NCBI GenBank assembly: GCA_963675755.2
Contig: CAXXMD010000003.1
Location: 1,728,001 to 1,792,000, forward strand
Source of the DNA: a bacterium
GTDB taxonomy: Bacteria > Zhuqueibacterota > Zhuqueibacteria > Residuimicrobiales > Krinioviventaceae
DNA length: 64,000 nucleotides
Reading direction: 5' to 3'
The notes under the pieces were generated by a model. It searched no databases and was not told where the DNA came from. It saw nothing but the letters and a program-made list of their open reading frames with translations. Positions 13,074 to 36,227 of this stretch are shown in pieces. Within the stretch, counting starts at the first letter, position 1. Each line of letters opens with the position of its first letter. The position numbers and the translations under genes are program-made.

Positions 13074-13119
13074 TATTGAGATATTTTTTGTATTATTTGT
13101 GCAAACATGGAGAATAAAA

Positions 13120-17741: not shown

Positions 17742-17821
17742 TATAAATAAATCTGATTTGCCAATTGTTGTGAATATATGATTTTCGGGCAATGCAATAA
17801 TATGCATCAAGGAGAAATGTT

Positions 17822-18268
17822 ATGCCCATACATATCGTTAAAGTCATTAGAGAATTTACCGATTCGGTCTCGTACTGGAGAGAAAAGCGGCCTGCTCAGT
17901 TTTGTTCAGAGGTGTCGCAAGCGTCTCCACGCTGGGAGCCCAATACGGATATTGTCGAGTTTGATGATTTTGTGATCATAAAAATTGAACTCGCTGGTGT
18001 AGACAGAGATGATATTTCTGTCAAAGTTAAAGATGGAATGATACGGATCTGCGGGGTCCGTCGAGAAAAAATGCTGGAAAACAGGCTGTCTTATCATCAG
18101 CTTGAAATTAAATATGGCAATTTTCAAAAAAACATCCATATACCACAATTTATGGAACATAATCAGATCGATGCCAATTTAATTGATGGAATATTGGAAA
18201 TTGTAATTTCCAAAGACAGTCAGGTTATTGAAGTGCCTATAAATAATAAAAGTGAAAATGAAGAATAA
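17822..18268 (+). CDS. Hsp20/alpha-crystallin small heat-shock protein
   Basis: W.P.TDI.E, ELAGV, EI.YG.F, A....GIL.I...K. Confidence 0.9.
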   Translation: MPIHIVKVIREFTDSVSYWREKRPAQFCSEVSQASPRWEPNTDIVEFDDFVIIKIELAGVDRDDISVKVKDGMIRICGVRREKMLENRLSYHQLEIKYGNFQKNIHIPQFMEHNQIDANLIDGILEIVISKDSQVIEVPINNKSENEE

Positions 18269-18298
18269 TTTAATCGAAATGTAGATTCAGGAGTTATC

Positions 18299-20683
18299 AT
18301 GGATGAAAACAATTTCAATGTAACGATTGAATCAGACTCTGAAATGGAAACCAAAGTTCCTGCGGAGCTGCCGATATTGCCTTTAAGAGATACTGTGACT
18401 TTTCCAAATATTGTAACTCCGCTTGTTGTTGCACGGGAAAAATCAGTCAAGCTGATAAATGATGTGATAGCGGGTTCAAGAATTCTTGGCCTGGTAGCAC
18501 AAAAAGACCCTGAAACAGAAGACCCGGAAACAGATGATATATACCAATTTGGAACAGCCGCAATTATTCTGCGTATGTTGAAATTCCCCGATGGTTCTTT
18601 GCGCGTATTGGTGCAGGGAATCTCGAGAATAAAATTAAAAGAAAATGTTTCTACCGATCCCTATATTGTTTACAAAGTAGAAACCAAAGAAGATGTTTAT
18701 AGAGAAACCACTGAAATTGAAGCGCTTAAGCGTAATGTGGGTCAGCAATTTCAAAAAGTGGTTTCACTGGTACCGCAACTGCCCGATGAACTTCAGGTTG
18801 TAATTGTAAATACAACTGATCCCGGTAAACTTGCGGATTTGATTGCTTCAAACCTCACCATTTCGGTAGAGGAAAAACAGTCTATACTTGAAGCATCAAC
18901 TATCAAACAGCGCTTGCAAAAACTTACGGTTTTGCTTAATCGCGAACTTGAAGTATTGGAGATGGGCTCCAAAATACAGGATAAAGTCCAGAGCGAGTTG
19001 GGTAAAAACCAGCGTGAATATTTTTTACGTGAACAATTGCGGGCCATTCAAAAAGAACTGGGCATGAGCGATGAACGCTCTGTTGAGCTAGAAGAACTGG
19101 AAGAACAGATTCTTGAAGCAAATATGCCCGAAGAAGCGGAAAATGAAGCCCTGCGTGAGCTGGACCGTCTTTCTAAAATGCAGCCTGGTGCGGCTGAATA
19201 TACGGTTTCACGCACATACCTGGACTGGATGATTATTTTGCCCTGGAATGTTGCAACCGAAGATAATCTTGATATTGATAAAGCCCAGAATGTGCTTGAT
19301 GAAGACCATTACGGCCTGCAAAAGATCAAAGAGCGTATAATTGAATATCTTGCTGTGCGCAAATTGAAAAACGATACCAAGGGCCCCATCATTTGTTTTG
19401 TAGGACCTCCGGGAGTAGGAAAGACCTCGTTGGGTCGGTCTATTGCGCGCTCTATGGGAAGAAATTTTGTGCGCATCTCACTGGGTGGTGTGCACGATGA
19501 AGCCGAAATCCGCGGTCATCGACGGACTTATATTGGTTCCATGCCCGGTAGAATCATTCAGGGTCTGAAAACAGCTGGAAGCAATAATCCTATTTTTATG
19601 CTGGATGAAGTTGATAAAATTGGCCAGGATTTCCGTGGTGATCCTGCATCGGCATTGTTGGAAGTACTTGATCCGGAACAGAATTTTTCCTTTTCGGATC
19701 ACTATCTGGATGTTCCTTTTGACTTGTCGAGCGTTATGTTTATTACCACCGCGAATGTGCTGGATACTATTCCATCACCTTTGCGTGACAGAATGGAAGT
19801 GATTGAACTTCCCGGATATATTGAAGAAGATAAAATACATATAGCAACCAAATACCTTATACCCCGGCAGATCCAGGAAAACGGATTGAAACGTAAACAT
19901 ATATCCTTTACCAAGGCCGCTGTAAAAAGTATTATTGCAGACTATACCCGAGAAGCGGGTGTGAGAAATCTGGAACGTCAGTTTGCAAACATTTGCCGCA
20001 AAGTGGCAAAAGAGGTTGCTTTGGGCAATGAAGATAAAGTTTCTATTACACCTGCCAAGGTTGTTGAACTTTTAGGACCAAAAAAGTTTTATTCAGAAGT
20101 TGCGGAGCGCTTGGGTAAAGCCGGTGTTGCAACCGGATTGGCCTGGACTCCTTCGGGTGGTGATGTGCTGTTCATAGAAGCCACTCGAATGACCGGCAGC
20201 AAAGGTTTGATTTTGACCGGACAATTGGGCGATGTGATGAAAGAATCCGCACAGGCAGCACTTTCTTATATTCGTTCAAATGCGGAAGCGCTTGGCATTG
20301 ATGAAACCATATTTGCCAAATCAGATATACATGTGCACGTACCTGCAGGTGCCATTCCCAAAGATGGACCTTCTGCGGGTGTTACCATGACCACAGCGCT
20401 GGTCTCTCTGCTAACACAAAAACCGGTGCGGAGCGATCTGGCAATGACCGGTGAAATTACCTTGCGTGGCAAAGTATTACCAGTTGGCGGCATTAAAGAA
20501 AAGATGCTGGCTGCTCAACGGGCAGGAATTAAGCATGTTATTCTGCCGGATAAAAACAAGGATGATCTGGAAGAGATCCCTGAAGATACGCGCAAGAAAA
20601 TGACTTTTTATCCGGTGAAAACGCTGGAAGAAGTACTGGAACTTGCAATTAAAACCAAACCGGTCAAGAATAAGAAAAAATAG
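18299..20683 (+). CDS. lon: ATP-dependent protease La
   Basis: [11 protein letters not shown] domain, [33 protein letters not shown]. Confidence 0.98.
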
Positions 20684-20725
20684 TCTGGAATAGTTGACAG
20701 GAGTCACAGCAGAAAAGGAAGAAAA

Positions 20726-22111
20726 TTGCTAAATCAGTTTAGTGAACATGGACAGGAACATGTTTTAAAATATTTATCAGAGCTTGATGATAACCAGATA
20801 TTTACAGAACGACTTGAAGATATAGATTTTGATATAGTAAACTATTGTGCCGGATTGTTGAAAAATCAGCATGAAGGGCATTATACACCCGGCACCATGA
20901 ATCCAACAAATGTTATTGAACTGCCGGAAAGTCCACAGCAAGTTGAGGAATATCGTAAAGCTGTGTCTGTGGGAGAAAAGCTCATTGCAGATAGTAAAGT
21001 GGGAGCACTTTTGGTTGCCGGTGGTCAAGGCACCCGTTTGGGATTTGATGGCCCAAAAGGTACGTTTCCGGTGGGTCCCATTACCGGCAAGACATTGTTT
21101 CAGCTTCATACGGAAAAGATCCTTGCCCGTGAAAGACAGTTGAACGCGGTTATTCCTTTTTATATTATGACCAGTGAGTTGAATTATAAGGATACGGTTG
21201 ATTTTTTCAAATTAAACGACTTTTTTGGTAAAGATGCGTCAACCATTATCTTTTTCAAACAGGGTATGCTGCCGCCACTTGATGGAAATGGCAAAATGTT
21301 TCTTGAATCCAAAGATCGGGTTGCCATGTCTCCCGACGGTCATGGCGGCATGCTGCGCGCGTTGTTTAAAAACAAGATTCTGGAAGACATGCAAAAGCGT
21401 GGATTAAAGAGTATTTATTATTTTCAGGTTGACAGTCCCCTGGTGAATGTTTGTGATCCTGCATTTGTTGGGTATCATGAATTGAATAATGCGGAAATGT
21501 CTGCCAAAACAGTTTATAAAAATGATCCGTTTGAAAAGCTTGGCAATATTGGTGAAATGAACGGCAAGACCGTGGTCATTGAATATACCGAACTCAGCGA
21601 TGATGAAAAGTTGGCTGTCAACGATAAAGGCAAGTTGACTTTTGGTCAGGGAAGTATTGGTATGCATGTGTTCAGTGTTGATTTTTTTCAACGGATACAC
21701 GATGAAAAGATCCAGCTTCCGTACCATATTGCGCACAAGAAAATACCGTATTTGAATGATTCGGGAGAGCTGGTAAATCCCGAATCTCCAAACGGATTTA
21801 AATTTGAGCAGTTTATTTTTGACGCGTTTCCTTTTGCAAAAAAAGTAATGGTGATGGAAACAGAGCGGAAAAACGATTTCAGTCCCATAAAAAACAAGAC
21901 AGGTGTTGATTCGCCCGAAACCGCAAAACAGGACCAGTTGAATCTGTATGGTGAATGGATAGAGAGTGCCGGGTTACCGCTAAACAGAGATTCAGATGGA
22001 AATGTAGCGGACCTGGTTGAAGTTTCACCACTTTATGCGTTGAATAAAGAACAGTTTGTTGAAAAGAAACCATCATTACCCGATTCACAAAAGGGTTATT
22101 TGTTTGAATAA
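20726..22111 (+). CDS. UDPGP type 1 family UTP--sugar-1-phosphate uridylyltransferase (eukaryote-like UDP-GlcNAc pyrophosphorylase)
   Basis: LVAGGQGTRLG.DGPKG, SPDGHGG, V.EY.E, KFEQFIFD, FSPIKN. Confidence 0.92.
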   Translation: MLNQFSEHGQEHVLKYLSELDDNQIFTERLEDIDFDIVNYCAGLLKNQHEGHYTPGTMNPTNVIELPESPQQVEEYRKAVSVGEKLIADSKVGALLVAGGQGTRLGFDGPKGTFPVGPITGKTLFQLHTEKILARERQLNAVIPFYIMTSELNYKDTVDFFKLNDFFGKDASTIIFFKQGMLPPLDGNGKMFLESKDRVAMSPDGHGGMLRALFKNKILEDMQKRGLKSIYYFQVDSPLVNVCDPAFVGYHELNNAEMSAKTVYKNDPFEKLGNIGEMNGKTVVIEYTELSDDEKLAVNDKGKLTFGQGSIGMHVFSVDFFQRIHDEKIQLPYHIAHKKIPYLNDSGELVNPESPNGFKFEQFIFDAFPFAKKVMVMETERKNDFSPIKNKTGVDSPETAKQDQLNLYGEWIESAGLPLNRDSDGNVADLVEVSPLYALNKEQFVEKKPSLPDSQKGYLFE

Positions 22112-22162
22112 ACCGGTTTTCGGATCCAAATTTTTGATAATATACAGGCGGTTAATCACGGT

Positions 22163-25100
22163 ATGGCAACTGGAACAAAAAAAGAAAAACGAGTTAAAAG
22201 GGGATTTTGGAGACGTTTTTTCCGATTCTGGTTGTTTTTTGGCTTGGGATTTATAGGGCTCATCCTTTTATTAATAATAATCGTTCATCTTTTTTTTCCT
22301 CCCGAGTATTTTAAAGGTTTGGCTATAAAAACTGTCAGAGAGCAGTTTAACCGTAATCTGACCATAGAGGGTGTAGATATCAATTTACTGAAAGGCATTG
22401 AATTTACAGATATTTCACTCACTCCGCTTGAAGAAAACCAAAAACTACCGGACGATTTTCCGGTCCAGTCGGCATCTATACACAAAATCCTTTTGAAATA
22501 CAATATCCGTGAGCTGTTTCACAAGCGTGTTGTCATTGACGAGATAGAGCTCAACTCGCCGGATATTTTTATCAACATGATCAATCCCCAGGATACAACG
22601 TCGGTAAAAGAGCCGCCAGCGGACTCGTTGCAAACACCGGTATTACCGGTTAGTATTGCGTTGAAACGGTTTCGGCTGCAAGACACAAAATTCCGCATGG
22701 AAATGCAGGACAGCCTTACCAGTCAGGTTTTGTATCTTGCTGATCTGGATGTTGGCCTGGATGACATCTATGTTCCACAGGGTGATGTAATGGCAAATGA
22801 CAGTGCCCTGGCAGCCGCACTGGAACTGAATGTAGACAAGGCTGCTTTTGAATTCAGCCAGCATGTTACAGGTGGTGATGACATGTCAGTAACGGGTATG
22901 ATTGCTTTGAACAGCAAGGTCAGAATTGCCACACTGGATAGTCTGGATGCCTCTCTGTTTTTACAGGTCAGTGATCTCGAGTTTCGTACATCGGCTGTTC
23001 CTGATTTTTCTGTCATTCCGTTGATTTATCCTGTAACCGTATCTGGTGATGTGCATGTCCTTGTTGAAGAGGAAAAAGTATCAGTCCCCGGTTTAACTGT
23101 CAAAGTCGGAGATGAAACCTGGCTGGGTTCTACCATCAAAGTTGATGGATTTTACAAGCAGTGGCCCCCGCATCTTTCCGCTTCCGTAGACAAGAGCAGA
23201 ATACCTGTGCAGCAGCTTTTGTCATTGGGAAGATCAGTATTGCCGGATTCGTTGTTTCCGGATATATATTTTAAAAATCCAAATGCAGCAATTACTTTTG
23301 CGGGCACTCGTGTTGAAGGCTCACTGCCTGACAGTTCTTCCACAGAAGGATTGGAATTTCAGGCTATTGCAGATTTTCTCGATTTTGGTTTGACCTTAAA
23401 CCAGGGACAAGCAGAACTGGTGAACCTGAATTTACAGGCGAGATCAAACGGCAGTCTCAATTTTAAGGGATTGCAAAATTTAAACGCGACCGCATCCGTT
23501 ACTTTTGATTCAGTATATTATGGTCTAAACGATACTCTGGAAATTTATACCGGTGAGGGCGGATTAAATCTTGAAGCGGCTATAAACGAGTATATGATGC
23601 CAAGAGACGTGGAATTGGGTTTTGAGGTAGCAAATGTATTGGGAACAACCTTTTATTCTCATTTTACACTGGGTACAGAAAAGACCTTACAATCTATTGC
23701 AGGGAATGGGGTAGTCAAGTTATCTGATATCGATACAAGGAATCTTGTGCCTATGCCGCTTGAAACTACCGCAAACCTGCAGCTTGATCTTGGCATTCAA
23801 ACGCTGGATTCGATCTCTACCCATATTGATTTTGCTACGGATTCATTGATGATACCCATGCAATATGAAACCGAAAACTTTCCGCCAATTCATTTTACAA
23901 CCAATCTGCTGTGCGGTATTGATACTTTGTTCCAGCATCTGGATATCCATAATTTATCTGTCAAGCTGAACCAGATTTTAGCAGCCAGTTTAAATGGCAC
24001 GTTTGATGTAGGTAAAACCGATTTTAAGGTAAAACTGCAAGACCTGGCATTGTACCATGCACCTGTTCTGGATTGGATGCCACGGCGTATGAAAGAACAG
24101 TTTGCAAGTTTAAAGGTAACCGGTGCAACCCATGTAACCGCAGATGTTACCGGCAATCTGGCCGGCGAACTGCCGGTTTTCGATCTTGAAAGCAAGGTCT
24201 TTACAGATCAGACGTCTGTCCATTATCCTGATCAGTTTATATCAATCGCGGGTATTCGTTTGAATGTGGATGCAGGATTAAATTCAGACAATAAAGCGGA
24301 TGTTAGCGTTTCACTAAAAATCGATACAACCCTGACGGATAATGTAAGACGAGCGGCGTTTTTAGATAATGTGATATCATTGGATGTACATAGCAATGAT
24401 TTAAAGAGTTTCCGGGTTGAAAACGGTCTAATCTCTTTGCCTGAATTACTGGCAAATGGCGAGTTTTATGCCAATATAGAAAATGTAGATACAGCCCCGC
24501 TCATTACTGCAACATTGGATTTCCATCAAAATGCGGAAGAGCCGCTGCAGATAACCCGGGATATTCAACTGAACGGGAAAACCGATCTCAGCGCAACCGT
24601 CAATATGGACACCGCATTGATGGATATTTTTGCAAATGTCAATACCAAAGACTTGACTATATTGCTGCCGGCTGAAACAGCTGTCAGGAATATCAATACC
24701 GATTTAAAAGTGCATCAGCGCATGGATCTGGTTAAAGGAATTTTCCTGGCGGACAAAGAGGCGCCTATCCAAACCCCAACAGATGGTTCTATCGATTATC
24801 TGGCCTATCGGGATTACTATCGCAATTCGCTTGATAACATGTCGTACCTGAGCATTGAAAAGATAGAAGCAGCCGGTTATGAAATAGATAATTTTGAATT
24901 TGAAGCTGTACTGGGAGGTGGCCGGGTGGAAATTCCTTCATATATGGCAACCGTATATGATGGAAACCTGGGCGGCAGGATCTCTGTGAATCTTGCAGGT
25001 GGCAACCTGGCAGAAGCGACATATAATTTATCTGCCCATTTTTCAGGCATCAACTCTGACAGATTGCTGGCGGGTTTAAAACGAAAAGAGAGTTTGGGCG

Positions 25101-25459
25101 TTATAAACGGTAACGCGCAATTTGAAGGTACTGGGGTGGACCCCAATGAGAAACTGGATATTCGAGGGTATTTTTACATTACCGAGATCGGTCCCCGAGT
25201 TGCAGACAATTTATTGCGTTCTCTGGATCCGGAAGAAAAAGACTCTGGTATTAAGATGACCCGGTTCCTCATCAACTGGGGGTATAAACCCAATTTGTTT
25301 TCATTTGATGTACGTCACGGGTTCTTTTCAACAACAGTTGAATTGTCTCAACCCTGGTATTTCCCTTTGAAATTGAGTGGCGGGAAAATTATTTTTGCCC
25401 GCAAGCCGGTACAATTTTTTATAGACCAGGCCCTGGCAACGGCCCGGATTCAAGAGTAA
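22163..25459 (+). CDS. AsmA/YdbH-like periplasm-spanning beta-groove protein (putative bridge-like lipid transporter)
   Basis: Basic N-terminus plus one TM anchor, AsmA-like start (..LTIEGVDINLLKGIEFTDISL), ~1000 aa of repeating beta strands, C-terminal YDG..GG module; followed by DUF1318. Confidence 0.75.
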   Translation: MATGTKKEKRVKRGFWRRFFRFWLFFGLGFIGLILLLIIIVHLFFPPEYFKGLAIKTVREQFNRNLTIEGVDINLLKGIEFTDISLTPLEENQKLPDDFPVQSASIHKILLKYNIRELFHKRVVIDEIELNSPDIFINMINPQDTTSVKEPPADSLQTPVLPVSIALKRFRLQDTKFRMEMQDSLTSQVLYLADLDVGLDDIYVPQGDVMANDSALAAALELNVDKAAFEFSQHVTGGDDMSVTGMIALNSKVRIATLDSLDASLFLQVSDLEFRTSAVPDFSVIPLIYPVTVSGDVHVLVEEEKVSVPGLTVKVGDETWLGSTIKVDGFYKQWPPHLSASVDKSRIPVQQLLSLGRSVLPDSLFPDIYFKNPNAAITFAGTRVEGSLPDSSSTEGLEFQAIADFLDFGLTLNQGQAELVNLNLQARSNGSLNFKGLQNLNATASVTFDSVYYGLNDTLEIYTGEGGLNLEAAINEYMMPRDVELGFEVANVLGTTFYSHFTLGTEKTLQSIAGNGVVKLSDIDTRNLVPMPLETTANLQLDLGIQTLDSISTHIDFATDSLMIPMQYETENFPPIHFTTNLLCGIDTLFQHLDIHNLSVKLNQILAASLNGTFDVGKTDFKVKLQDLALYHAPVLDWMPRRMKEQFASLKVTGATHVTADVTGNLAGELPVFDLESKVFTDQTSVHYPDQFISIAGIRLNVDAGLNSDNKADVSVSLKIDTTLTDNVRRAAFLDNVISLDVHSNDLKSFRVENGLISLPELLANGEFYANIENVDTAPLITATLDFHQNAEEPLQITRDIQLNGKTDLSATVNMDTALMDIFANVNTKDLTILLPAETAVRNINTDLKVHQRMDLVKGIFLADKEAPIQTPTDGSIDYLAYRDYYRNSLDNMSYLSIEKIEAAGYEIDNFEFEAVLGGGRVEIPSYMATVYDGNLGGRISVNLAGGNLAEATYNLSAHFSGINSDRLLAGLKRKESLGVINGNAQFEGTGVDPNEKLDIRGYFYITEIGPRVADNLLRSLDPEEKDSGIKMTRFLINWGYKPNLFSFDVRHGFFSTTVELSQPWYFPLKLSGGKIIFARKPVQFFIDQALATARIQE

Positions 25460-25477
25460 CATTTGAGGAGAATATAA

Positions 25478-26029
25478 ATGAAATATAAATATATTTTGAG
25501 CATTCTCGTTATGGTTTTGGCTGTACATTGCAGTTTTAAAACCGAAGATATCAGTATTCGGGGTGATAAAACCATGCTGGAAGACCAGGTATTGGGTGCG
25601 TTTGAACAAATTGAAAGTGATACATGGGTTGTTGCATCTACCCGTTCGGTTGGCGGCGGTCAGACACAAACCATGTCTGCGCAGCGCCAGAATGTATTGG
25701 AATCTGTTCAAAATCGCAAGTTCAACAAGGATGAAATTGACGAGTTTAAAAAAGAACAGGTTCTGGGTGAAAACAACAAGGGCTATCTTGAAATATTGCC
25801 AACTGAAAAATATGAATCAGATTCTCAGTATAAACGCATAATAGATCAGATTGTAACTGAAGAAAATCAGGACCGCAAAGTGATTTACGAGCGGATCCTT
25901 GCAATTAACCCATCCGCGGCTGCTGCAGATGAAGAGGAACGCAACAAGATTTTTGCAAAATTGAATATAGATAATTCGCCGGACGGCACATTGATACAAA
26001 AAAGCGATGGTTCATGGTCAGGAAAATAA
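25478..26029 (+). CDS. DUF1318/YdbL-family lipoprotein
   Basis: Signal peptide with Cys (LAVH/C); GENNKGYL, V..EN.DR..IY, G.LIQ..DGSW..K. Confidence 0.85.
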   Translation: MKYKYILSILVMVLAVHCSFKTEDISIRGDKTMLEDQVLGAFEQIESDTWVVASTRSVGGGQTQTMSAQRQNVLESVQNRKFNKDEIDEFKKEQVLGENNKGYLEILPTEKYESDSQYKRIIDQIVTEENQDRKVIYERILAINPSAAAADEEERNKIFAKLNIDNSPDGTLIQKSDGSWSGK

Positions 26030-29000
26030 TGAAATATAGGATTAAACACATATTCCTCACACTCGTCTTGACAGTGTTGTTTGTGTCGAGCTCGTTCAAC
26101 TTTGCGCAAGCGCCTGATAATAAAAAATTGGATTATCAGCAGGTAACCACCCACCCTGATATTGACTTGTCTGCGCGTATTTCTCCAGACGGCAAGTGGA
26201 TGGCCTATGTGTCCCGTCAGTCTGATAATTTTGACATTTGGATTCGCAGCACTGCGGGCGGTAGATCCATTCAGGTTACATTTCATAAAGCGGATGATTA
26301 TTATCCAGTGTGGTATCCTGACAGCCGAACTATAGTATTTGTTTCACAGCGCAGTGATGCCGCGGGTGATATTTGGCTGGTGCATCTGCGCGAGATCAAG
26401 GGCAGGCTTTATCCCAAAGGTGAACCAGAGCGGTTTACCGATTATATGGGGTATGACGGGTATCCTACCGTGTCTCCGGATTCTAAAAAAATTTGCTGGG
26501 TCTCTGACCGTAGCGGCAGTGAAGAACTTTGGTTTTATAATGAGCATACGGAAGCCAAATTACAGTTGACCTACAAGGGTGGTACACACCCCATGTGGAG
26601 CTCTGACCTGCAAATGATTGCTTTTACTTCGTTCAGAGACGGTCCGGAAAACAATGGTGATATTTTTATTATTAATCTCAAGGGACCAAAACCTACAGGT
26701 CAGGATACATTGCTTTGGGACCTGCGTGAATATCCCACTTATCAGTTGACCAAGGGACCGGCTATAGACGGATTCCCCAGCTGGACCAAAGAAGCCACAC
26801 AGGTTGTTTTCCTGCGAAACGAGTTTGATACCAACAAAGACGGTTCGTTAACACCTACTGACCGCGCTGCCGTTTGGGAAGCCCAGATTTTCAAAACACC
26901 CATTGAATTGATGTTTGTCAGTGATCCCATGTTGCAGGTATTAAGCAAGTCATTTAATTTGAAAATGGCATCTTATGCCATGCCGCTTACTTCCGGTGGT
27001 GAACAGGTAATGCAGCCTTATACAGGTTCTAATGATAGAATCTATTTTACCTCTGACCGTGGCGGCAACCTCGATATATGGTCATTCCCATCAACCGGGT
27101 ATATACCACGGGTGAATAATCCTGCATTGCAATATCAGCTTGCAGACTCCATATATGCACTGTCTCCAGAAATGACACGTTTAACACTCGGTCCATTGTT
27201 CCTGGAGTGGGATCCTCAATCAATGACCAAGCAGCAACGCTTATTGTTATGGGACCGCCAGTTGGCCTTTAAAAGAGTAATTGATTATTTTGGAACGGCA
27301 ACAGAGGTTTCACCCCAGACATTATATGAAATAGCGGTATGTTTTAAATTGCTCGATTATCCGGAACAGGCGGATTTATTTTTAGAGATTTTGTTAAAGA
27401 ATTTTCCTGAACACAAAACACTTGCTGCTTACGCGGAAATGTTAAAACTGGGGCTTAAGGCAAGGAATGTATCATCAGGGCAAAAAAGGCTTGAACTGTT
27501 AAAGCCCGAGCTTGATGCCATTCTAGAAAAATACAAGCTTGAAGCTGAGCCCATGTCTGCAGCCTATATTGTGCTTGGTGATCTATTCTACCAGGTCAAA
27601 CAGGATGCGCAGGCATTTAAGGCATATGAACAGGTTTTGGAATCTTTTCCGGAACAGAGCTTTTATTGTGCGGAAGCTCAATTGAAAATTGGAGACGTGT
27701 TCAGCCGGTTTGCTACCCAGGATGAAGTCATACAGGCATACTTGCAGGTTGTTCAAAAATATCCGGAGCAGCGCGACTGGATGGTTCCCGCACGTGATCG
27801 CATTCTGGATTTACTGGTAACAGATGCCAGTAACGAGCTCGATCTGATTAGCCGATATCGTGAGATTGTAGGGCAATATGCCCAGTTCCCATTGCTTGCG
27901 GCTGCGGCACAACTCCGCATTGGTAAAATCCTGTTTAACGCGGGGGATTATGCTTCCGCTATTCAGGAATATGAAATGGTAGAATCGTTATTTGGCGATC
28001 TGGTAGAGGAAGTATTTACTGCCAACTTCTCTATTGCAGAGTCTTTGCTGATGATGGGCGAGAACCTGCGAGCCTTTTCGTTACTTGAGCAATTGGTAAA
28101 TCGTTACAGCAGCAACCGTAAAGATCTTTCTGATACCGCATGGGATCGGTTGTTAAAGGCACTCTTGGATTCAGGAGATGAGTTAAAGTCCGCACAAGAA
28201 TTTAGTCTGGCATTATTACGCTATCAACGCGCCAAAGAGATGGATCTCAACAATTTACATGCACACAGGGGATATATAGAGTGCTTGTACTATCAACGAA
28301 AAATTGATGATGCGGTTGCAGAATATGAGCAACTGGTCAAAGACTATCCTGAACAGCAGGTAATACTTTATTGTTTGGGACTGACCTATTCATACAAGGG
28401 CACAGAAAAAGCCGAGCTATACAATGAGCCAGACGCGCTTGATACCAGAATGCTCAACCAATCCAGTTACCGTATTGCCCGAGCGCTGGCTTTGGACTAT
28501 ACTATGGTGCAGCCGTATCTGACCCTGAGTTATAATTATGAGATGATGGAGCAGGCCGAAGCGCGAGAACGTGCCAAACCCAAGCCCTTTTATGTCAGAC
28601 TGTGGAATACCTTGCGCACTCCATTTGACTATGTTTATGATATTGTGACATTTGCCAAAGTTGAACCTAAACGCGGTTATTATGAACGGGCTATCCACGA
28701 GTTGACCAAGGCGATTGGTTTAAACGATGCCGAAGTTGATCCCGATCTTGAGGCCAATCTTGCGCTAAACCTGGCAAATAATTATTATAATTTGGGTGAA
28801 TATGGTTACGCCAAAGCATACGAATATTATCATATAAAACTCAAATATGATTCAACGTTTTATGATAAACAACGCGAGGCCCTGATCTATGAACGCATGG
28901 GGCATTGTTCGTACAAGGTTGAAGATGTTAAAGGCGGTGAAAAATATCTGCTAAGGGCCATTCAGTTATATACTGAACTGGAAGATGAAGGGCACGTGCT

Positions 29001-32000
29001 GTTAAATTTGAGCCGTTTGGCATTGTTGTATCAGGATACTGGCTTGAACGAGTTTGCTGTAGAGTATTTTCAAAATGTGGCTGATATTTACAAACGCAAA
29101 AACATGTATGATAACCTGATGCGGAGTTATCGCAGTATTGCGCTGAATTATCTTATATTGGAAGAACCACAGGATGCAATATATTATGCCAATCAAGCGC
29201 TCGAGTTACTGCAAAGTGGAAAGGTTAAAGAAATTAGTCAAGATCCTTCACGGGTCAAGGTTGGCTTGCTGGGTCTGCATGTACCTGTACCTTTTGTGAA
29301 CTTGAACAATATGCTGCCCATGGCTGCGTTGAAATTCACAACTGAAGATGAAAGTGCACTAGTTTATACTATTCTGGGCTCCAGTTATAGTTATGAGAAA
29401 AATTACAAGGAAGCCATTACCAATCTGAATAAAAAAATGGAGCTGTTTAAAAAGCAGGATGATAAAGCTTCGCAGGCGACCTTGTTGAATAATATAGGCT
29501 ATTTATATTTCCTCAATGGTGATTATGAAAATGCCTGGGGCAGCTTTAGCGAATCCCTGAAAATTTGTAAAGATAAAAAGCTGCTTAGGGGAATTCTGTT
29601 AAATAGTTCAAACCTTGCCAGAATTGTAATGGCAATGAATGCCGCTATTCTGGAAGATCAGTTGGATTATACACAGGTCAAAAATCAATTTTGGCAATAT
29701 CAAAATGATGCGGCGGAAAATATTAATGATGCCCTTGATCGTATACAGGATGAAGAATTCCGCTATGTAAAGATCAAGATAGAGATGTATCGTTATCTGG
29801 CAGATTTTTCATTAATCCATTTTGATGAGCAGGACGATCTGACAAGTAATATTGAATCAAACCTGTTTATATTTGAAAATGGATCTTATGCGCAAACCTA
29901 TCTGCAGGAAGCCCTCAGGACTGCCAAAGCTTACGAGTTGTTGGAAGAAGAATGTTCTATAGAATATGATCTGGGCAAGTTGTTTTATAAATTGGGCAAT
30001 GCGGATGAGTCTTATGCTCATTTGCGTGTTGCACGTAGAATGGCAATACGAAATGCATATTATGATATGCTATGGAGAATAGATACCCACATGGGTGATC
30101 TGCTTTCCATGATGCCCCGTGATGTCAAAGTTAAATACTCTATACAAAAAGATCCTTACGAGTATTTTATAGAAGCCATTGATGTGCTGCAGGCACATCC
30201 TGCAAAAATTTCAGGTGCAAATGCAGCTACATTGCGTACGACCTACCAGAAACCCTATCGCCGGGTCATTCGGTATATGACTGAAAAGAACGATATTAAC
30301 GGTGCGCTTGCCATGTCTGAACAAATGCGGGCAAAATTGTATCTGGATATGGTTAGCAGTGAAAATATTGATTTGCGTAAAGAGCGACACAAGATCTATT
30401 ATGGAAATGCCAAGTTTTTACAGCGGACTATTAATGAACTGGAAATCAGTCTGCTGCAAATGAAAAACCGGTTTGATATTCCGTATGCAGATATTATAGA
30501 AAAAATGAAAGAGTTAGAGTCTTATAAAGAGGAGTATGAAACCCTGTTGAGTGACGCGCGTCTTGAAGTGCCGGAACTGGAGACTCTTGTACGCGTGAAT
30601 CCGGTAACGTGTGAAATGCTGCAAAAAAAGATTAGACCGGGTGAAGCAATCCTCTATTTTACGGAACTGGAAGATCAGCTTTTAACCTGGCTGGTTACAA
30701 AAAAGCAGATTTATTATATTGGATATAAACTCTCCAGACACGAGTTGAACCGATATGCTGACCAGGTGTTTACAGCATTGAAATCAGGTGCTGATGAGAT
30801 TCCTGAATTATCGGGAATCAACCTGTTCTCTGTTCTGGACCAGGCACAAACTCCTGTCAAGCATCTTGTTGTTGTGCCACCTAATGAGCTGCTCTTACTT
30901 CCCTGGAGTGCAATGTTGTACCAGGGCAATCCGAATGATATGGATATTACAACCAGTACCAGTTTGACGGATTACTATTATTCTTATGACCGGAGAAAAA
31001 TCCAGGGGCAACGCATCTTTTTTGCATCGCGGGATTTGTCTTCACAGGTATTAAAAGATGAAGGGTATACCGTCATTCTTCCCATGACCAGTCAGGAGCA
31101 AAACAGTTTTTCTGCGCAAGGTCAGCCCTTGGGACGTTCGGATGTGATTTATCTCAAGGTGCAGGGAGAGTGGAACGAGATCGATCCTGCACGCTCGCGA
31201 ATGGGTTTCAGGATCAAACAATCTTCATTGGCGGTTTTTTCATCCATTGATTTGTATTCAATGAATTTGAACGCAAGTCTTGTTCAACTCAGTTTTGAGC
31301 ACGATATTCCATTCAGAAATTTCAGTCAGCCATTCATAGCATGGGAACGCGCGTTTGGTTACGCCGGTGTACCTTCTTTACTGGTGTCTTTATGGCCGCT
31401 TACACCAGAGAGTGAAAATGAATTCCTATCTGTTTATTATGAATTTCTTCAGGATTTTCCGGCAGCAGAAGCATTGAATATGACCCGTAACCATTACGTT
31501 CGGGCAGATTCCTCATTCCGCTTCTGGGCGGGGTATCAACTGTATGGATTTGGCGGTATGTCCCGGGATGAAGAAGAACAATACGCGCAGGAGGGATTTG
31601 AAGGTCAGGTACGCCGTGGCCACAGTGCATACGAATTGGGCGAATGGGAAGATGCGATCCGGTTGTATGAAAGCGCTCAGCGAATGGCAGAACGGCAAAA
31701 TGATACGGAAAGCATTGAGCTGTTACAGCAGAGAATACTCGAGTGTGCGGTTAACGGAGGTTTTTGGAGCAAAGCCATTGAAACACAATTGACACAGATT
31801 GAAAATGCTCAAGCCACCAACGATGTGGCTGCCGAAGCAAACGGATACAGTAATCTGGCATTCTTTTATACACAGAACAAAGAGTTTGATAAAGGCATTG
31901 AAGCTAAAGCGCGCTTTACCCGACTTGCAGAGCAATATGGATTAAAAGAGGAAGAGGCGCATTCTTTGCGTGAGACCGGTTTAATCTATGAACGAGGCGG

Positions 32001-34458
32001 ACAATATAAACTTGCGCTGTCTCTTTTTACAGAAGCTCTGGATAAATTCAGATCCATTGAAAACCATGAAGGTGAGGCACAGTGCCTGCGAGATATTGGG
32101 CGGGTTAATTTCTTTTATCTTGATAATTATTATGATGCATTGGTTGTTCAACGCGAGGCTTTGGATATTTTCAAAACTTTGGGTATAACCCAGGATTTTG
32201 TGGATGCATTGCACAATCTGGGTAACACCAATGAAAAAATGGCCAACTATAAGCGTGCTCTTGCTTATCAACAGCAGGCACTTGAATACGCTATCCAGCT
32301 TGATGATGTGAGATTGCAGGGATTGTCACGACAGTACCTGGCAAATGTTTACTGGAAAATGGGCAGCTACCAGAGTGCGCTTGAACAGCAGGAACAGGCA
32401 CTCGCTATATTTGAATCTTTGCAGGACAATAAATTGTTACAGGTAGCCAATGCTACCCGTGGATTGATTGCGCTTAGTTTTGGTGATCCCGAAAAAGCGC
32501 AGACATTTGAACTCAAAGCCCTTGAGCTGGCTACTGCGCTTGGTGACCGCAAAGACGAAGCAACCATTTACAAAAATATTGGAATGATACAGCGCGCGCA
32601 GGGCAGAGATGACCTGGCATTGTCCAGCTTTGAGCAAGCCGCAGAGATTGATTCGTTAATCAATTCCAAGCGGGGTATGGCTTATGATCTTCGTAATATT
32701 GCATCCATACAGATTGGGATGAATGTCAATTCGCCATCTCGGCAGCATTTGAATCGATCCTTACAAATTTCTCAAGACATTCAGGACTGGCGCAATACCA
32801 CACAATGTTATCTTGAACTGGGTCGTCTGGAAATGCTGGACCAACGGCCAGACAGCGCTCGGGTCTTTTTTGGAAAATCAGCAGAGCTTGCTGAAAATTT
32901 ATACATGCCCGAAATCCAATGGCGTGCGCATAAATATCTGGCAGAAACCTGGCAAGGTGTCAATGCGGATAGTGTTTCTGCACAATATTACAAAGCTATT
33001 GATGTTATAGAATCCATGCGAGCAATGATCAAAGTGGAAGAATTTGCTTCGGGTTTTGTGGATGATAAACTGGATGTATACGGAGCGTTGATTGACCTGC
33101 ATCTTGAACAGGGACAGGTGGAAAAAGCGTTTGATCTGGTAGAACGATCCAAAAGCCGCAGTTTTCTGGATATGCTGGGAAGTAAAGAAATTGCATTTAA
33201 TACTCAAAACCGTGATCTGTTGGCAAAAGAAGACAGCCTGGATACAAAGTTAAAAGAAACCCAAACCCGGTTGTTTTATCTTCGCTCTAAAAATGACAGC
33301 CTGGTAAAGGATGAAAAGATCCAGCTTGAGGGTCTGGTTAAACAGATTGAACAGGAGCGCGATTCTTTATTGGTTCGCTTGCAACAGAGCGATCCCGAGT
33401 TGTCTGATATGCTGTCTGTAAATCCTTTGACGGTTGAACAGTTGAAAGAAAAACTGCCTGCACGTACAGGTGTTCTGGAATTTTATCTTTATAAAGACCA
33501 TCTCTATTCGTGGTTGTTGACACGAGTTGGGATTGATTACCGCAAGGTTGAAATTGATCCTGTCCAATTTGAAAAGGATGTCTTTGAATTGCGTCAGGTT
33601 CTTGACAGGCAATTGTCTGTAACAAACTGGTCTCAATCTTTATATGAAAAACTTGTAGGTCCCTGGGATTCTGAACTTTACAAGGTAGACCATCTGGTTT
33701 TGATTCCTCAGGGCAGTCTGCATTATCTGCCGTTTGCCGTTCTGCAGAACAAAGACCAGGTATATTTTGGATTGTCGCACTCGCTTTCTATTGCACCCAG
33801 TGCAACTGTAATGGCGTATTGTCTGGAAAAGGGTGATTCTTTGCGCACAACGAACAAAGACAGCATGAGTGTTCTTGCGTTTGGGAACCCGGATCTTGGT
33901 AGTAAAAAATGGGACTTGCCCTTTGCTTCTCGCGAAGTAAACAGTTTAAACCGCTATTTCACTCATGTGAATATGCTTTTAAATAAACGTGCTACGGAAA
34001 CCAATTTGTATTCTTTATCAGAATATCCACCCATTATGGTTTTCAGTTGTCACGGAGAATACGATGACGCGAATCCGCTCTTGTCTGCGTTGCTGTTATC
34101 ACCCGATTCCACCAATGACGGCAAGCTTGAAGCAGAAGAGATTTTCTCGCTTGATCTGAATGCGTATATCGTGGCCATGAGTGCCTGTGAAACTGGTCTG
34201 GGTACTATTCGTGGTGGAGATGAAGTGGTAGGCCTTTCACGCAGTTTTATATATGCGGGTACTTCTTCACTGCTAAGTAGTTTATGGAAAGTGGATGATC
34301 TGGCCACTGCGGTACTTTTAAAACGATTTTTCCGGTATCTGTCAGAAGGCAAATCCCGGGCTGATGCATTACGCATGGCGCAAAAAATTGTTCATGATGA
34401 GATCAATCCTTATCCGTCCTTTTGGGCAGCATTCACCCTTACAGGTGACTGGCGTTAA
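26029..34458 (+). CDS. Giant secreted PD40 beta-propeller / TPR / pseudo-CHAT / TPR / CHAT protein
   Basis: Signal peptide; TolB-like repeats (SPDGKWMAYVS, FTSDRGGNLDIW); many TPRs; degenerate internal CHAT; C-terminal CHAT with FSCHG, MSACETG, SSLWKVDD, FWAAF.L.GDW. ATG overlaps the DUF1318 stop (TAATG). Confidence 0.92.
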   Translation: MKYRIKHIFLTLVLTVLFVSSSFNFAQAPDNKKLDYQQVTTHPDIDLSARISPDGKWMAYVSRQSDNFDIWIRSTAGGRSIQVTFHKADDYYPVWYPDSRTIVFVSQRSDAAGDIWLVHLREIKGRLYPKGEPERFTDYMGYDGYPTVSPDSKKICWVSDRSGSEELWFYNEHTEAKLQLTYKGGTHPMWSSDLQMIAFTSFRDGPENNGDIFIINLKGPKPTGQDTLLWDLREYPTYQLTKGPAIDGFPSWTKEATQVVFLRNEFDTNKDGSLTPTDRAAVWEAQIFKTPIELMFVSDPMLQVLSKSFNLKMASYAMPLTSGGEQVMQPYTGSNDRIYFTSDRGGNLDIWSFPSTGYIPRVNNPALQYQLADSIYALSPEMTRLTLGPLFLEWDPQSMTKQQRLLLWDRQLAFKRVIDYFGTATEVSPQTLYEIAVCFKLLDYPEQADLFLEILLKNFPEHKTLAAYAEMLKLGLKARNVSSGQKRLELLKPELDAILEKYKLEAEPMSAAYIVLGDLFYQVKQDAQAFKAYEQVLESFPEQSFYCAEAQLKIGDVFSRFATQDEVIQAYLQVVQKYPEQRDWMVPARDRILDLLVTDASNELDLISRYREIVGQYAQFPLLAAAAQLRIGKILFNAGDYASAIQEYEMVESLFGDLVEEVFTANFSIAESLLMMGENLRAFSLLEQLVNRYSSNRKDLSDTAWDRLLKALLDSGDELKSAQEFSLALLRYQRAKEMDLNNLHAHRGYIECLYYQRKIDDAVAEYEQLVKDYPEQQVILYCLGLTYSYKGTEKAELYNEPDALDTRMLNQSSYRIARALALDYTMVQPYLTLSYNYEMMEQAEARERAKPKPFYVRLWNTLRTPFDYVYDIVTFAKVEPKRGYYERAIHELTKAIGLNDAEVDPDLEANLALNLANNYYNLGEYGYAKAYEYYHIKLKYDSTFYDKQREALIYERMGHCSYKVEDVKGGEKYLLRAIQLYTELEDEGHVLLNLSRLALLYQDTGLNEFAVEYFQNVADIYKRKNMYDNLMRSYRSIALNYLILEEPQDAIYYANQALELLQSGKVKEISQDPSRVKVGLLGLHVPVPFVNLNNMLPMAALKFTTEDESALVYTILGSSYSYEKNYKEAITNLNKKMELFKKQDDKASQATLLNNIGYLYFLNGDYENAWGSFSESLKICKDKKLLRGILLNSSNLARIVMAMNAAILEDQLDYTQVKNQFWQYQNDAAENINDALDRIQDEEFRYVKIKIEMYRYLADFSLIHFDEQDDLTSNIESNLFIFENGSYAQTYLQEALRTAKAYELLEEECSIEYDLGKLFYKLGNADESYAHLRVARRMAIRNAYYDMLWRIDTHMGDLLSMMPRDVKVKYSIQKDPYEYFIEAIDVLQAHPAKISGANAATLRTTYQKPYRRVIRYMTEKNDINGALAMSEQMRAKLYLDMVSSENIDLRKERHKIYYGNAKFLQRTINELEISLLQMKNRFDIPYADIIEKMKELESYKEEYETLLSDARLEVPELETLVRVNPVTCEMLQKKIRPGEAILYFTELEDQLLTWLVTKKQIYYIGYKLSRHELNRYADQVFTALKSGADEIPELSGINLFSVLDQAQTPVKHLVVVPPNELLLLPWSAMLYQGNPNDMDITTSTSLTDYYYSYDRRKIQGQRIFFASRDLSSQVLKDEGYTVILPMTSQEQNSFSAQGQPLGRSDVIYLKVQGEWNEIDPARSRMGFRIKQSSLAVFSSIDLYSMNLNASLVQLSFEHDIPFRNFSQPFIAWERAFGYAGVPSLLVSLWPLTPESENEFLSVYYEFLQDFPAAEALNMTRNHYVRADSSFRFWAGYQLYGFGGMSRDEEEQYAQEGFEGQVRRGHSAYELGEWEDAIRLYESAQRMAERQNDTESIELLQQRILECAVNGGFWSKAIETQLTQIENAQATNDVAAEANGYSNLAFFYTQNKEFDKGIEAKARFTRLAEQYGLKEEEAHSLRETGLIYERGGQYKLALSLFTEALDKFRSIENHEGEAQCLRDIGRVNFFYLDNYYDALVVQREALDIFKTLGITQDFVDALHNLGNTNEKMANYKRALAYQQQALEYAIQLDDVRLQGLSRQYLANVYWKMGSYQSALEQQEQALAIFESLQDNKLLQVANATRGLIALSFGDPEKAQTFELKALELATALGDRKDEATIYKNIGMIQRAQGRDDLALSSFEQAAEIDSLINSKRGMAYDLRNIASIQIGMNVNSPSRQHLNRSLQISQDIQDWRNTTQCYLELGRLEMLDQRPDSARVFFGKSAELAENLYMPEIQWRAHKYLAETWQGVNADSVSAQYYKAIDVIESMRAMIKVEEFASGFVDDKLDVYGALIDLHLEQGQVEKAFDLVERSKSRSFLDMLGSKEIAFNTQNRDLLAKEDSLDTKLKETQTRLFYLRSKNDSLVKDEKIQLEGLVKQIEQERDSLLVRLQQSDPELSDMLSVNPLTVEQLKEKLPARTGVLEFYLYKDHLYSWLLTRVGIDYRKVEIDPVQFEKDVFELRQVLDRQLSVTNWSQSLYEKLVGPWDSELYKVDHLVLIPQGSLHYLPFAVLQNKDQVYFGLSHSLSIAPSATVMAYCLEKGDSLRTTNKDSMSVLAFGNPDLGSKKWDLPFASREVNSLNRYFTHVNMLLNKRATETNLYSLSEYPPIMVFSCHGEYDDANPLLSALLLSPDSTNDGKLEAEEIFSLDLNAYIVAMSACETGLGTIRGGDEVVGLSRSFIYAGTSSLLSSLWKVDDLATAVLLKRFFRYLSEGKSRADALRMAQKIVHDEINPYPSFWAAFTLTGDWR

Positions 34459-34539
34459 GTTGTATACCTTATTTCATTATAATTATTTCTGTTTGAGCAG
34501 AAACACATCAGGTTTTTTAAATTAAACGAGGGCAATAGT

Positions 34540-35652
34540 ATGGAGCATCGATTGTCGGGTATTCCCCAGGGGCGCATTTTATCATTAGATGTTTTGCGTG
34601 GTTTTGATATGTTTTGGATTATTGGCGGGGCATCATTATTGGGCAATTTTTTTAAATTATTCAACACTCCATTTACAGATTCGCTTGTCAGGCAGTTTGA
34701 GCATACGGAATGGAATGGATTCACTTTTTACGACCAGATTTTCCCCATGTTTTTGTTTATAGTGGGTACCAGTATGGCTATTGCTTTGGGGCGAAGAAAA
34801 CAAAAGGGACTGTCAAAAAAAGAATTGTACAAGTATGTAATTAAACGTTTTCTGTTATTGTTGTTTTTAGGCTTTGTTTTTAATGGATTGTTTGATTTCA
34901 ATTTTAGCAATTTTAGATATGCCGGAGTGCTGCAGCGCATTGCATTTAGTTATTTGTTTGCATCAATCATTTTTATCCATACCTCAAAAAAAGTACAATA
35001 TGGTATAGCTGCTTTTATATTGCTGGCCTATTGGGCAATGATGATGCTAATTCCGGTACCCGGATTTGGTGCGGGACAGCTTACTCCTGAAGCCAACCTG
35101 GCGGGATACATAGATCGAATGCTTTTACCGGGAAGATTTTGCTGTTACACTTTTGGAGATAATGAGGGCATTCTTACGACACTGCCGGCAATTGTGAATA
35201 CCTTGATGGGTGTATTTGCGGGTTACTGGATGTTGTCTGCAGCATCTCAAACCAAAAAGGCACTGGGCTTGATTATAGCAGGTGTTGCTTCGTTATTGGT
35301 CGGTGGGTTATGGGGACTGGTTTTCCCAATCAACAAGTTGTTGTGGACCTCAACATATGTATTGTGGACTGTTGGCTGGAGTCTGCTGCTGCTGGCTCTG
35401 TTTTACTGGATTGTGGATATTAAAGGATGGCAGCGATGGGCGTATCCGTTTATCGTGATTGGTTTGAATCCCATAACCATCTATGTAGCACAGCGTCTGT
35501 TCAAATTTGGAGATGTGGCCCAGGTATTTATTCATGGATTTGTTGAATATCTCGGTGATTTTAAAGTGGTCTTTACCATACTCTGTGTGTTGGCAGTCAA
35601 GATTTTATTTCTACACTTTTTGCACAAGCACAAAATCTATTTACGGGCCTAG
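34540..35652 (+). CDS. DUF5009/HGSNAT (NagX)-like membrane acyltransferase
   Basis: R..SLD.LRG, H..W.G....D..FP.FLFIVG, GVLQRI, D.EG.L, PINK.LWT, G.N.I..Y. Confidence 0.9.
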   Translation: MEHRLSGIPQGRILSLDVLRGFDMFWIIGGASLLGNFFKLFNTPFTDSLVRQFEHTEWNGFTFYDQIFPMFLFIVGTSMAIALGRRKQKGLSKKELYKYVIKRFLLLLFLGFVFNGLFDFNFSNFRYAGVLQRIAFSYLFASIIFIHTSKKVQYGIAAFILLAYWAMMMLIPVPGFGAGQLTPEANLAGYIDRMLLPGRFCCYTFGDNEGILTTLPAIVNTLMGVFAGYWMLSAASQTKKALGLIIAGVASLLVGGLWGLVFPINKLLWTSTYVLWTVGWSLLLLALFYWIVDIKGWQRWAYPFIVIGLNPITIYVAQRLFKFGDVAQVFIHGFVEYLGDFKVVFTILCVLAVKILFLHFLHKHKIYLRA

Positions 35653-36227
35653 TTTTCTGTGTTGCGTTTAAATAAAAACGCATCCTGTGAAAAAGCGTGT
35701 TTGTAAGAAATTGTTGTGAATCCGGATTCATGAGCCAGTGATTGAATTGCTGCAACTGACCTTGCATGGATCCGGTTTACTCCCACACTTCGCAAAAAGG
35801 TGAACCAGCTTGGAGGAGAGCTGGTGAGCAGTAGATATCCACCAGGTAACAGGCATCGTTTACATTCAATGAACAACAGGGGCAGGTCTTTAATATATTC
35901 AGATAAACCAATAACGGTTACAAATGAAATTGAATTGCTGCACACGGCCTGGTGCAGTGCGTCTGAAGCTATTACAGAATGATTTTTTTGGTGGCTTTTT
36001 TGTACCATCGAGATGCTCTTGTCAGAGCCCAGTTTGAAAAGCGGTTCAGGCAGCAGCTCCATCGAGTCTCCGCTGCCGCATGCCATGTCGAGTCCCCAAC
36101 CCGACAGCTCGGGTACTCGTTTTATCAACTGTTGAATTTGTCGCAGCTCATTGGTGTGGATTTGGTTCAAGGGCCATGGACTGCGGAACCATTTATAAAG
36201 CGGAGCTTTCAGGTCCCACAGGTTCAT
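35649..36227 (-). CDS. Class I SAM-dependent methyltransferase
   Basis: LDMACGSG, D.S..MV, R.L.PGG.L; overlaps the punA stop. Confidence 0.8.
   Translation of the reverse strand: MNLWDLKAPLYKWFRSPWPLNQIHTNELRQIQQLIKRVPELSGWGLDMACGSGDSMELLPEPLFKLGSDKSISMVQKSHQKNHSVIASDALHQAVCSNSISFVTVIGLSEYIKDLPLLFIECKRCLLPGGYLLLTSSPPSWFTFLRSVGVNRIHARSVAAIQSLAHESGFTTISYKHAFSQDAFLFKRNTEN

Follow-up and report, generated by a model that had tools for sequence, protein, structure and literature searches.

The movement of phospholipids to the outer membrane of Gram-negative bacteria, together with its control, is an open question, and AsmA-like proteins of the bridge kind, which span the periplasm and are thought to carry phospholipids, are the leading candidates for this task. 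In Escherichia coli, such a bridge is encoded by the operon ydbH-ynbE-ydbL, in which YnbE, a lipoprotein of the outer membrane, extends the groove of YdbH by a strand and YdbL serves as a soluble helper in the periplasm (PMC11126948; preprint 10.64898/2026.03.16.712125). A protease-like architecture in the periplasm is exemplified by DdvA of Myxococcus xanthus, a periplasmic TPR-CHAT anti-sigma factor encoded in a defence island (PMC11506125). In the present study, we analysed a stretch of bacterial DNA of 64,000 nucleotides (G000:C3:1728001-1792000, hereafter the window), which belongs to a host genome of 6.48 Mb in 3 contigs that is 98% complete, and focused on three consecutive genes in it that encode an AsmA-like protein (P0001), a lipoprotein with a YdbL-like DUF1318 domain (P0002) and a giant exported protein with a beta-propeller, tetratricopeptide repeats (TPR) and two CHAT domains. 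The co-retention and co-loss of this trio in unrelated bacteria points to an undescribed cell-envelope machine, and a literature search found no paper that joins DUF1318 or AsmA-like proteins with CHAT, nor AsmA-like proteins with DUF1318; for periplasmic TPR-CHAT proteins with a signal peptide, it gave nothing related, as judged by title and abstract.

The locus resembles the E. coli operon in that an inner-membrane AsmA-like, beta-rich protein is encoded beside a DUF1318 protein in both, the YdbL fold and its N-x-x-R motif are kept, and P0001 is homologous to the YdbH-like proteins at the profile level. It differs from that operon in that no YnbE gene was found here and that the YdbL-like protein is itself lipid-anchored and extended by a strand and a helix, and also in that the gene of a giant exported putative protease is attached, none being present at 42 loci with a short form of the DUF1318 gene. 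P0001 is, in addition, about 230 residues longer than YdbH, which has a length of 869 aa (PMC11126948); scaled in proportion from the 180 Å given there for YdbH, P0001 would extend over about 225 Å.

Results

The three genes and the features within them lie on the + strand. According to the list of open reading frames (ORFs), the AsmA-like bridge-type gene (P0001) occupies positions 22163..25459 (1098 aa), and the long-form DUF1318 (YdbL-like) lipoprotein gene (P0002) occupies 25478..26029 (183 aa); the giant gene, with the domain order PD40-TPR-pseudoCHAT-TPR-CHAT, extends over 26029..34458 (2809 aa). An 18-bp spacer (25460-25477) separates the first two genes, and the stop codon TAA of the lipoprotein gene (26027-26029) and the ATG at 26029-26031 share one A, forming a TAATG overlap, so that the tight packing of the three co-directional genes noted in a preliminary description of this DNA was confirmed. 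The longest frame of the giant opens 15 nt further upstream, at 26014, and would yield 2814 aa; position 26029 is nevertheless the likelier start, because its ATG yields MKYRIK followed by a hydrophobic stretch, which is the same beginning as in the homologues. Export signals, likewise claimed for all three products, were recognized as an anchor helix in P0001, a hydrophobic N-terminus ending in Cys18 in P0002 and a hydrophobic N-terminus in the giant, the last of these as judged by eye.

A scan with a DUF1318 alignment, in which each species was represented by one genome, gave 80 loci, of which 38 carried the long form of the gene and 42 the short form. A homologue of the giant was found in 27 of the 35 long-form loci that could be assessed (three of the 38 end too early to judge) and had no match in any of the 42 short-form loci (0/42). 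The labels of the carrier loci include KSB1, Desulfobacteria-type, Nitrospinota, Spirochaetes and Mcinerneyibacterium. In 33 of the 38 loci, the gene immediately before the long-form gene encodes a protein of at least 511 aa, and three further loci start too late to judge; in L023 the AsmA-like gene was four genes away, and in L024 there was none. Among the 33 large upstream proteins, 27 had direct family evidence, three were not tested singly and three had no Pfam family. Pfam matches to PD40, TPR and CHAT were all present in the giants of the loci labelled Desulfosudis, Proteobacteria and Desulfobacteraceae, and the giant of the Mcinerneyibacterium locus had TPR and CHAT without PD40.

The presence and absence of the genes were then compared within two clades. 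In the window's phylum, for which 151 genomes were drawn evenly and queried with the lipoprotein, the giant scaffold (residues 300-1300) and the C-terminal part of the AsmA-like protein, each of the three genes was found in 108 of the 151 genomes. Comparison of the lists indicated that all three were present in 101 genomes, none in 38 and part of them in 12; when G088 and G144, which are unpublished and both carry all three, were left out, the values were 99, 38 and 12 (n = 149). In five of the 12 partial genomes (G010, G065, G071, G136 and G041), the gene that was found lies at a contig edge, and the other seven (G070, G101, G061, G040, G083, G020 and G103) were unexplained. Whole families were devoid of all three genes, for example family f5 (0/18). 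In the class of the Desulfosudis-labelled genome (n = 121), the lipoprotein gene was found in 13 genomes, the giant in the same 13 and the AsmA-like gene in 12 of those, with none of the three in the other 108; thus, 12 genomes had all three genes, one had two and 108 had none. In the single two-gene genome, the lipoprotein gene lies at the start of a contig.

The trio was maintained even where its members had been separated. In family f9, the giant is encoded near the AsmA-like gene in G028, in which the lipoprotein gene lies elsewhere among unrelated genes, and also in G040, in which the lipoprotein gene was not found; in G031, another member of f9, the giant had no AsmA-like gene next to it. 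In G124 and G104 of family f10, the lipoprotein gene adjoins the giant, and the AsmA-like gene lies elsewhere, in the middle of a contig. Each of the three possible gene pairs is thus found together in some lineage, and loss of linkage has not removed the genes from the genome. Furthermore, the identity to the three proteins of the window drops with taxonomic distance, as it does for vertically inherited genes. Taken together, the same pattern in two distant clades and the synteny in further phyla are hard to explain without a shared function. The trio thus recurs in unrelated lineages, and the earlier inference of a functional coupling between the bridge genes and the giant scaffold is accordingly well supported by comparative genomics, namely by the survey of the DUF1318 neighbourhoods, the synteny in it and the presence/absence counts in the two clades.

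Some irregular copies were also observed. In G137, which belongs to the window's family, a 44-aa lipoprotein frame and a 362-aa AsmA-like frame lie at C4:419701-420995 with the giant on another contig, which may reflect locus decay or an assembly problem. The AsmA-like matches in G100, G131, G095 and G031 each contain one in-frame stop codon and may represent pseudogenes or sequencing errors. In a locus with the Spirochaetes label (L033:738-3065), a 775-aa NHL-repeat propeller protein occupies the place of the giant after the long-form DUF1318 gene.

P0001 contains a Pfam AsmA match of 60.5 bits (cut-off 29.8) at residues 28-203, preceded and partly overlapped by a hydrophobic stretch with a predicted helix at residues 16-44 (22208..22294) that would serve as the N-terminal membrane anchor; both an N-terminal anchor and an AsmA/chorein-type N-terminal domain are thus present. 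In an AlphaFold2 (AF2) model built from an alignment of 27 homologues, with a mean predicted local distance difference test score (pLDDT) of 83, the helix 16-44 is followed by about 60 strands over residues 64-1077. The top Foldseek match of the model was the bridge-like lipid transfer protein LPD-3 (9cap_A) with a probability of 0.99, and an N-terminal fragment of Vps13 (6cbc_B) was matched with a probability of 1.00. By hhalign, the profile of the P0001 family was linked to 22 canonical YdbH-like proteins with a probability of 97.9% over residues 690-985, but P0001 had no match at E<=0.01 to the Pfam YdbH-like family PF11739, on which the canonical loci reach 55.8-89.5 bits. Because of this combination, P0001 is, at the level of profile comparison, a relative and not a member of the YdbH-like family. 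P0001 is predicted to be an inner-membrane-anchored, AsmA-like, beta-rich rod, that is, a protein of the bridge type, and this prediction of a long all-beta rod, from AF2, Foldseek and hhalign, is compatible with the beta-groove proposed earlier for the 1098-aa protein. The host genome additionally encodes two TamB-type genes.

In P0002, the Pfam DUF1318 domain was detected with 43.8 bits (cut-off 27) at residues 84-183. Its hydrophobic N-terminus ends in Cys18, which is invariant in all 19 close homologues compared (19/19) and whose position is occupied by Cys in at least 90% of 30 sequences from across phyla. Because the invariant Cys18 follows a hydrophobic N-terminus, P0002 is a predicted lipoprotein. 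Cys18 and the N-terminal extension (25529..25726) comprise a strand-like segment at residues 19-31, a helix at residues 33-55 and a flexible linker; in the AF2 model (pLDDT 87.6), segment 19-31 is of low confidence and is followed by the helix, a loop and the YdbL-like domain. Conservation of the extension reaches across phyla, E35 and G40 being invariant in the 30 sequences. The domain at residues 84-183 (25727..26026) matches E. coli YdbL (PDB 28oj) with a profile E-value of 4.7e-4 and a Foldseek probability of 1.00 (TMt 0.78), and the VIA superposition of the two gave a Z score of 8.8 with a root-mean-square deviation of 2.4 over 86 aligned residues. In the profile alignment, N-A-E-R of YdbL falls on N130-Q-D-R133 of P0002, and N130 and R133 are invariant in the 30 sequences from several phyla, the N-x-x-R motif being kept. 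In the E. coli protein, E60 and R61 are among the residues that contact the YnbE helix (preprint 10.64898/2026.03.16.712125).

At the canonical loci of the survey, a small lipoprotein gene sits between the YdbH-like gene and the short YdbL-like gene. The host genome, in contrast, had no match to the YnbE family (PF13617) at E<=1, and a comparison of the P0002 extension with eight YnbE-like proteins of canonical loci by hhalign gave a probability of less than 1%. Sequence homology of the extension to YnbE was therefore dropped, Pfam at E<=10 having returned only DUF6520 on the signal peptide; only the general layout, consisting of a lipid anchor, an alternating strand-like segment and a helix, is alike. 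In a tree of the last 105 residues of DUF1318, which had 69 rows (L026 was left out, its ORF having been missed in calling), the long and short forms fell on opposite sides of one branch with a support of 95/82. Because of this split and because the extension is unlike the small lipoproteins, we regard the long form as a separate branch within the family. By analogy of layout, the lipid anchor, strand-like segment and helix of the long form may do the work of YnbE. The designation of P0002 as a YdbL-like lipoprotein thus holds for its fold and its predicted lipidation, but the comparison implied by it needs amendment, as E. coli YdbL is itself soluble and YnbE is the lipoprotein (PMC11126948), and no YnbE gene was found here.

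The giant, with a size of about 300 kDa, begins with a signal-like segment that leads directly into a TolB-like PD40 beta-propeller (26131..27123; about residues 40-370 of the 2814-aa frame, to which the residue numbers of the giant refer), as indicated by matches to PD40 and to TolB chains. The propeller is followed by a first helical/TPR scaffold (27271..30513; about residues 420-1500), with matches to TPR_6, TPR_16 and TPR_14 at residues 719-793, and by a middle CHAT-like domain (30838..31548, corresponding to G000:C3:1758838-1759548; 50.7 bits), a putative pseudo-protease. A second TPR array (31666..33453; about residues 1885-2480), with six stretches of TPR_12 and matches to TPR_1, TPR_2 and a MalT-like TPR at residues 2038-2240, precedes the C-terminal CHAT protease domain with its His-Cys dyad (33631..34449, corresponding to G000:C3:1761631-1762449; 203.7 bits). 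The Pfam scores of the protein were 247.2 bits for CHAT (two stretches), 102.4 bits for PD40 (three stretches) and 198.7 bits for TPR_12. Searched alone against 1.84 billion proteins, the scaffold part matched 93 cluster representatives at E<=1e-30, and most of the best 150 matches were 2,500-2,930 aa long.

The His and Cys of the C-terminal CHAT domain were kept in 16 of 16 aligned giants; of the 19 loci in which a C-terminal CHAT was matched, 15 were aligned together with the window, the others being L007, L014, L026 and L027. In the same kind of alignment, the His of the middle CHAT domain is replaced by Gln, and the Cys is missing. The C-terminal domain is thus a putative protease with an intact catalytic dyad, and the assignment of CHAT as a His-Cys peptidase stands for this domain and not for the middle one, which is without both residues. 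In every lineage inspected, the giant or its homologue began with a hydrophobic segment, which agrees with the proposal that the CHAT protein is exported and not cytoplasmic, and the giants of L025 and L029 have a lipoprotein-like N-terminus. Two successive genes together encode the giant in L027, L030 and L042. In L030 and L042, the first of them encodes the propeller and TPR, and the second encodes TPR either alone or with CHAT; the first piece in L027 matched the TPR scaffold alone.

Separase has a pseudo-protease domain ahead of a live one. The giant is like separase and the craspase component Csx29 in that TPR repeats are followed by a CHAT caspase-fold domain, and the motifs of its C-terminal dyad could be aligned to those of TPR-CHAT 7zoq_A (E 2.5e-5) and of Csx29 7y9x_B (E 4e-4). 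Those proteins are, however, cytoplasmic or nuclear, Csx29 being bound to a CRISPR effector, and no CRISPR-associated families were found among the neighbours of the giant in the window; the score against the NCBIfam Csx29 model NF041237 was 41.9 bits, below the cut-off of 300. With respect to TolB and CpoB (YbgF) of the Tol-Pal system, the PD40 propeller is most TolB-like, its closest solved relatives being TolB chains (best, 7mx5_A, E 9.7e-11), and a YbgF-like TPR stretch lies at residues 502-586. The scores of both remained far below the family cut-offs, with 86.9 bits against 343.15 for TIGR02800 and 55.7 against 405 for NF002183, neither TolB model being reached, and 55 bits against 90.1 for the YbgF-like stretch; the resemblance is thus one of domains only. 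DdvA shares with the giant a TPR-CHAT part with a His-Cys dyad on the periplasmic side of the inner membrane, and it differs in crossing the membrane once, in having a zinc anti-sigma domain on the cytoplasmic side and in being paired with a sigma factor of the extracytoplasmic function (ECF) type (PMC11506125). The giant, by contrast, is predicted to be exported in soluble form; it has three times the length of DdvA, contains a propeller and an additional, dead CHAT domain, and is genetically linked to envelope genes. The closest sigma-70-family gene (52052-52648) lies about 18 kb away, and the features of a DdvA-type anti-sigma factor were not found in it. The earlier remark that CHAT domains are best characterised in cytoplasmic defence systems consequently has to be qualified, as DdvA is a periplasmic TPR-CHAT protein that is already known.

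With regard to the surroundings of the trio, its region has a guanine-plus-cytosine content of 0.40-0.45, which is inside the range of the window (0.34-0.48). A scan of positions 17500-36500 gave slightly more promoter-like sites than the shuffled expectation and as many terminator-like sites as expected, with nothing telling between the three genes. A UDPGP-family gene (20726-22111) ends 51 bp upstream of the AsmA-like gene. Upstream neighbours recurring beside the trio are UDPGP-like genes in 12 related loci, Lon in nine and HSP20 in eight, and a downstream membrane-protein gene recurs in four. Nearly all of the loci with these neighbours hold an AsmA-like protein that directly matches that of the window, and they look like close relatives of it; these four genes were for this reason not counted as members of the system. 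The synteny of UDPGP, Lon and HSP20 (20726-22111 and 17822-20683) could mean heat-shock co-regulation or merely conserved synteny at the level of the phylum.

Elsewhere in the window, there are two tandem DUF3160 proteins (55508-58081, 857 aa, and 58194-60788, 864 aa), each of which ends in a type IX secretion sorting domain. A 411-aa ORF without a Pfam family (13036-14271) is followed by a gene for a fusion of GYF_2 with a ParA/MinD-type ATPase (14327-15613). Within 52052-53468, an ECF-sigma-type gene overlaps the start of a 279-aa ORF that has only an N-terminal DNA-photolyase domain, which may be a truncated or split photolyase-like gene.

Discussion

The genetic link of the trio is well supported, and its mechanism is inferred from the features described above. 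We consider it somewhat probable that the three genes form one envelope system, in which the lipoprotein merges the roles of YnbE and YdbL and the giant docks on the bridge and controls it. In this reading, the first two proteins would together make up a YdbH-YnbE-type bridge, for which the lipoprotein would provide in a single chain what E. coli divides between YnbE and YdbL. The lipidated strand 19-31 may add to the C-terminal end of the groove and thereby close the bridge at the outer membrane, and the helix 33-55 may sit in the pocket of its own YdbL-like domain, which would fix the 1:1 ratio that E. coli must balance. The giant could dock on this bridge by way of its propeller and TPR surfaces, and its C-terminal CHAT domain could control the assembly, turnover or opening of the bridge. 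As a parallel to such control, E. coli has to keep YdbL and YnbE in a balanced ratio, and free YdbL is degraded by DegP in vitro (preprint 10.64898/2026.03.16.712125).

Several results weigh against this interpretation. The lack of a PF11739 match for P0001 and of a detectable relation between the P0002 extension and YnbE has been described above, and the Foldseek TM-scores of P0001 are low (0.12-0.39), which may be expected for a long rod. The giant is absent from eight of the 35 assessable long-form loci, comprising four of Brachyspira, one of Spirochaetia and one each with the labels Gemmatimonadetes, Dependentiae and Spirochaetes. In Brachyspira and other lineages, the AsmA-like protein and the long-form DUF1318 protein thus occur together with no giant, and these two must therefore have a function independent of it. 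The giants of L023 and L030 are without the C-terminal CHAT domain, and proteolysis is therefore not the whole story. Moreover, the genomes of a clade are kin, so that the co-occurrence counts suggest more independent events than there were.

As for the site of cleavage, the candidate is the flexible linker of the lipoprotein that follows its conserved Arg56. A basic residue occupies the position of Arg56 in 19 of the 20 CHAT-giant loci and in all six loci in which the giant is cut by the contig end (6/6), and a non-basic one is present in Brachyspira, L064, L033 and L023. Against such a role, the position is basic in L024 and possibly L022, both without a giant, which amounts to two of about five giant-less lineages. 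That the giant is a dedicated site-specific periplasmic protease that cuts the YdbL-like cap off the lipoprotein at Arg56, licensing or dismantling the bridge and thus switching the flow of lipids to the outer membrane, is in our judgement improbable as a specific proposal. Arg56 was not retained as an evidenced cut site: it correlates with CHAT giants in too few independent lineages and serves as a lead only.

TamB was, with TamA, first described for the assembly of autotransporters. By this model, the giant could be a client, with the AsmA-like protein and the lipoprotein placing, anchoring or assembling the 300-kDa protein at the outer membrane or the cell surface, and its export, its very large size and the fact that it is kept together with both other genes would fit such a role, as would the lipoprotein-like N-termini in L025 and L029, by which the giants may be attached to a membrane. 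We nevertheless hold the client role to be unlikely, considering that the AsmA-like protein and the long-form DUF1318 protein are paired without a giant in Brachyspira and others and that AsmA-like proteins are now assigned to lipid transport and not to protein export (PMC11126948, PMC8593681). There is a similarly small chance that the giant is an independent periplasmic protease for quality control or stress sensing, which shares its regulation or envelope context with the bridge and makes no contact with it. The general protein-binding nature of TPR and propeller scaffolds, the loss of a single operon in families f9 and f10 and the heat-shock genes HSP20 and Lon just upstream in the window and in eight to nine related loci are in line with independence; mere co-regulation, however, would not be expected to give so close a match of presence and absence in two unrelated clades, and the giant stays beside one or other partner after rearrangement.

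It is highly improbable that the giant is a sensor in conflict or defence of the DdvA or craspase type, that is, a periplasmic TPR-CHAT protein that senses phage or another threat and signals by proteolysis. Its closest solved CHAT relatives are indeed the type III-E CRISPR TPR-CHAT proteins cited above (7zoq_A and Csx29 7y9x_B), and DdvA exemplifies that a periplasmic TPR-CHAT protein can serve defence signalling (PMC11506125). Nonetheless, the giant has no anti-sigma domain or transmembrane anchor, its score against the Csx29 model is far from the cut-off, and no sigma, CRISPR or CBASS (cyclic-oligonucleotide-based anti-phage signalling system) gene lies beside it, the neighbours being housekeeping genes. 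The DUF1318 gene, the giant scaffold and the C-terminal part of the AsmA-like gene each match the genome once, their base composition is ordinary, and the decrease of identity with taxonomic distance is that of vertically inherited core genes. An origin of the trio from a mobile element or defence island was rejected on the grounds of the ordinary base composition, the single genomic match per gene and the housekeeping neighbours.

The reading of the trio as one envelope system bears on the biology of lipid bridges in general. The trio appears to be a widespread natural variant of YdbH-YnbE-YdbL, in which the helper and the outer-membrane partner appear as one lipoprotein. If the protease acts on the bridge, it would represent the first regulator dedicated to a bridge of this kind and, at the same time, a CHAT protease with a periplasmic housekeeping role outside defence. 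The trio also yields testable predictions with respect to the contacts among its proteins, the cut site and the phenotypes of mutants.

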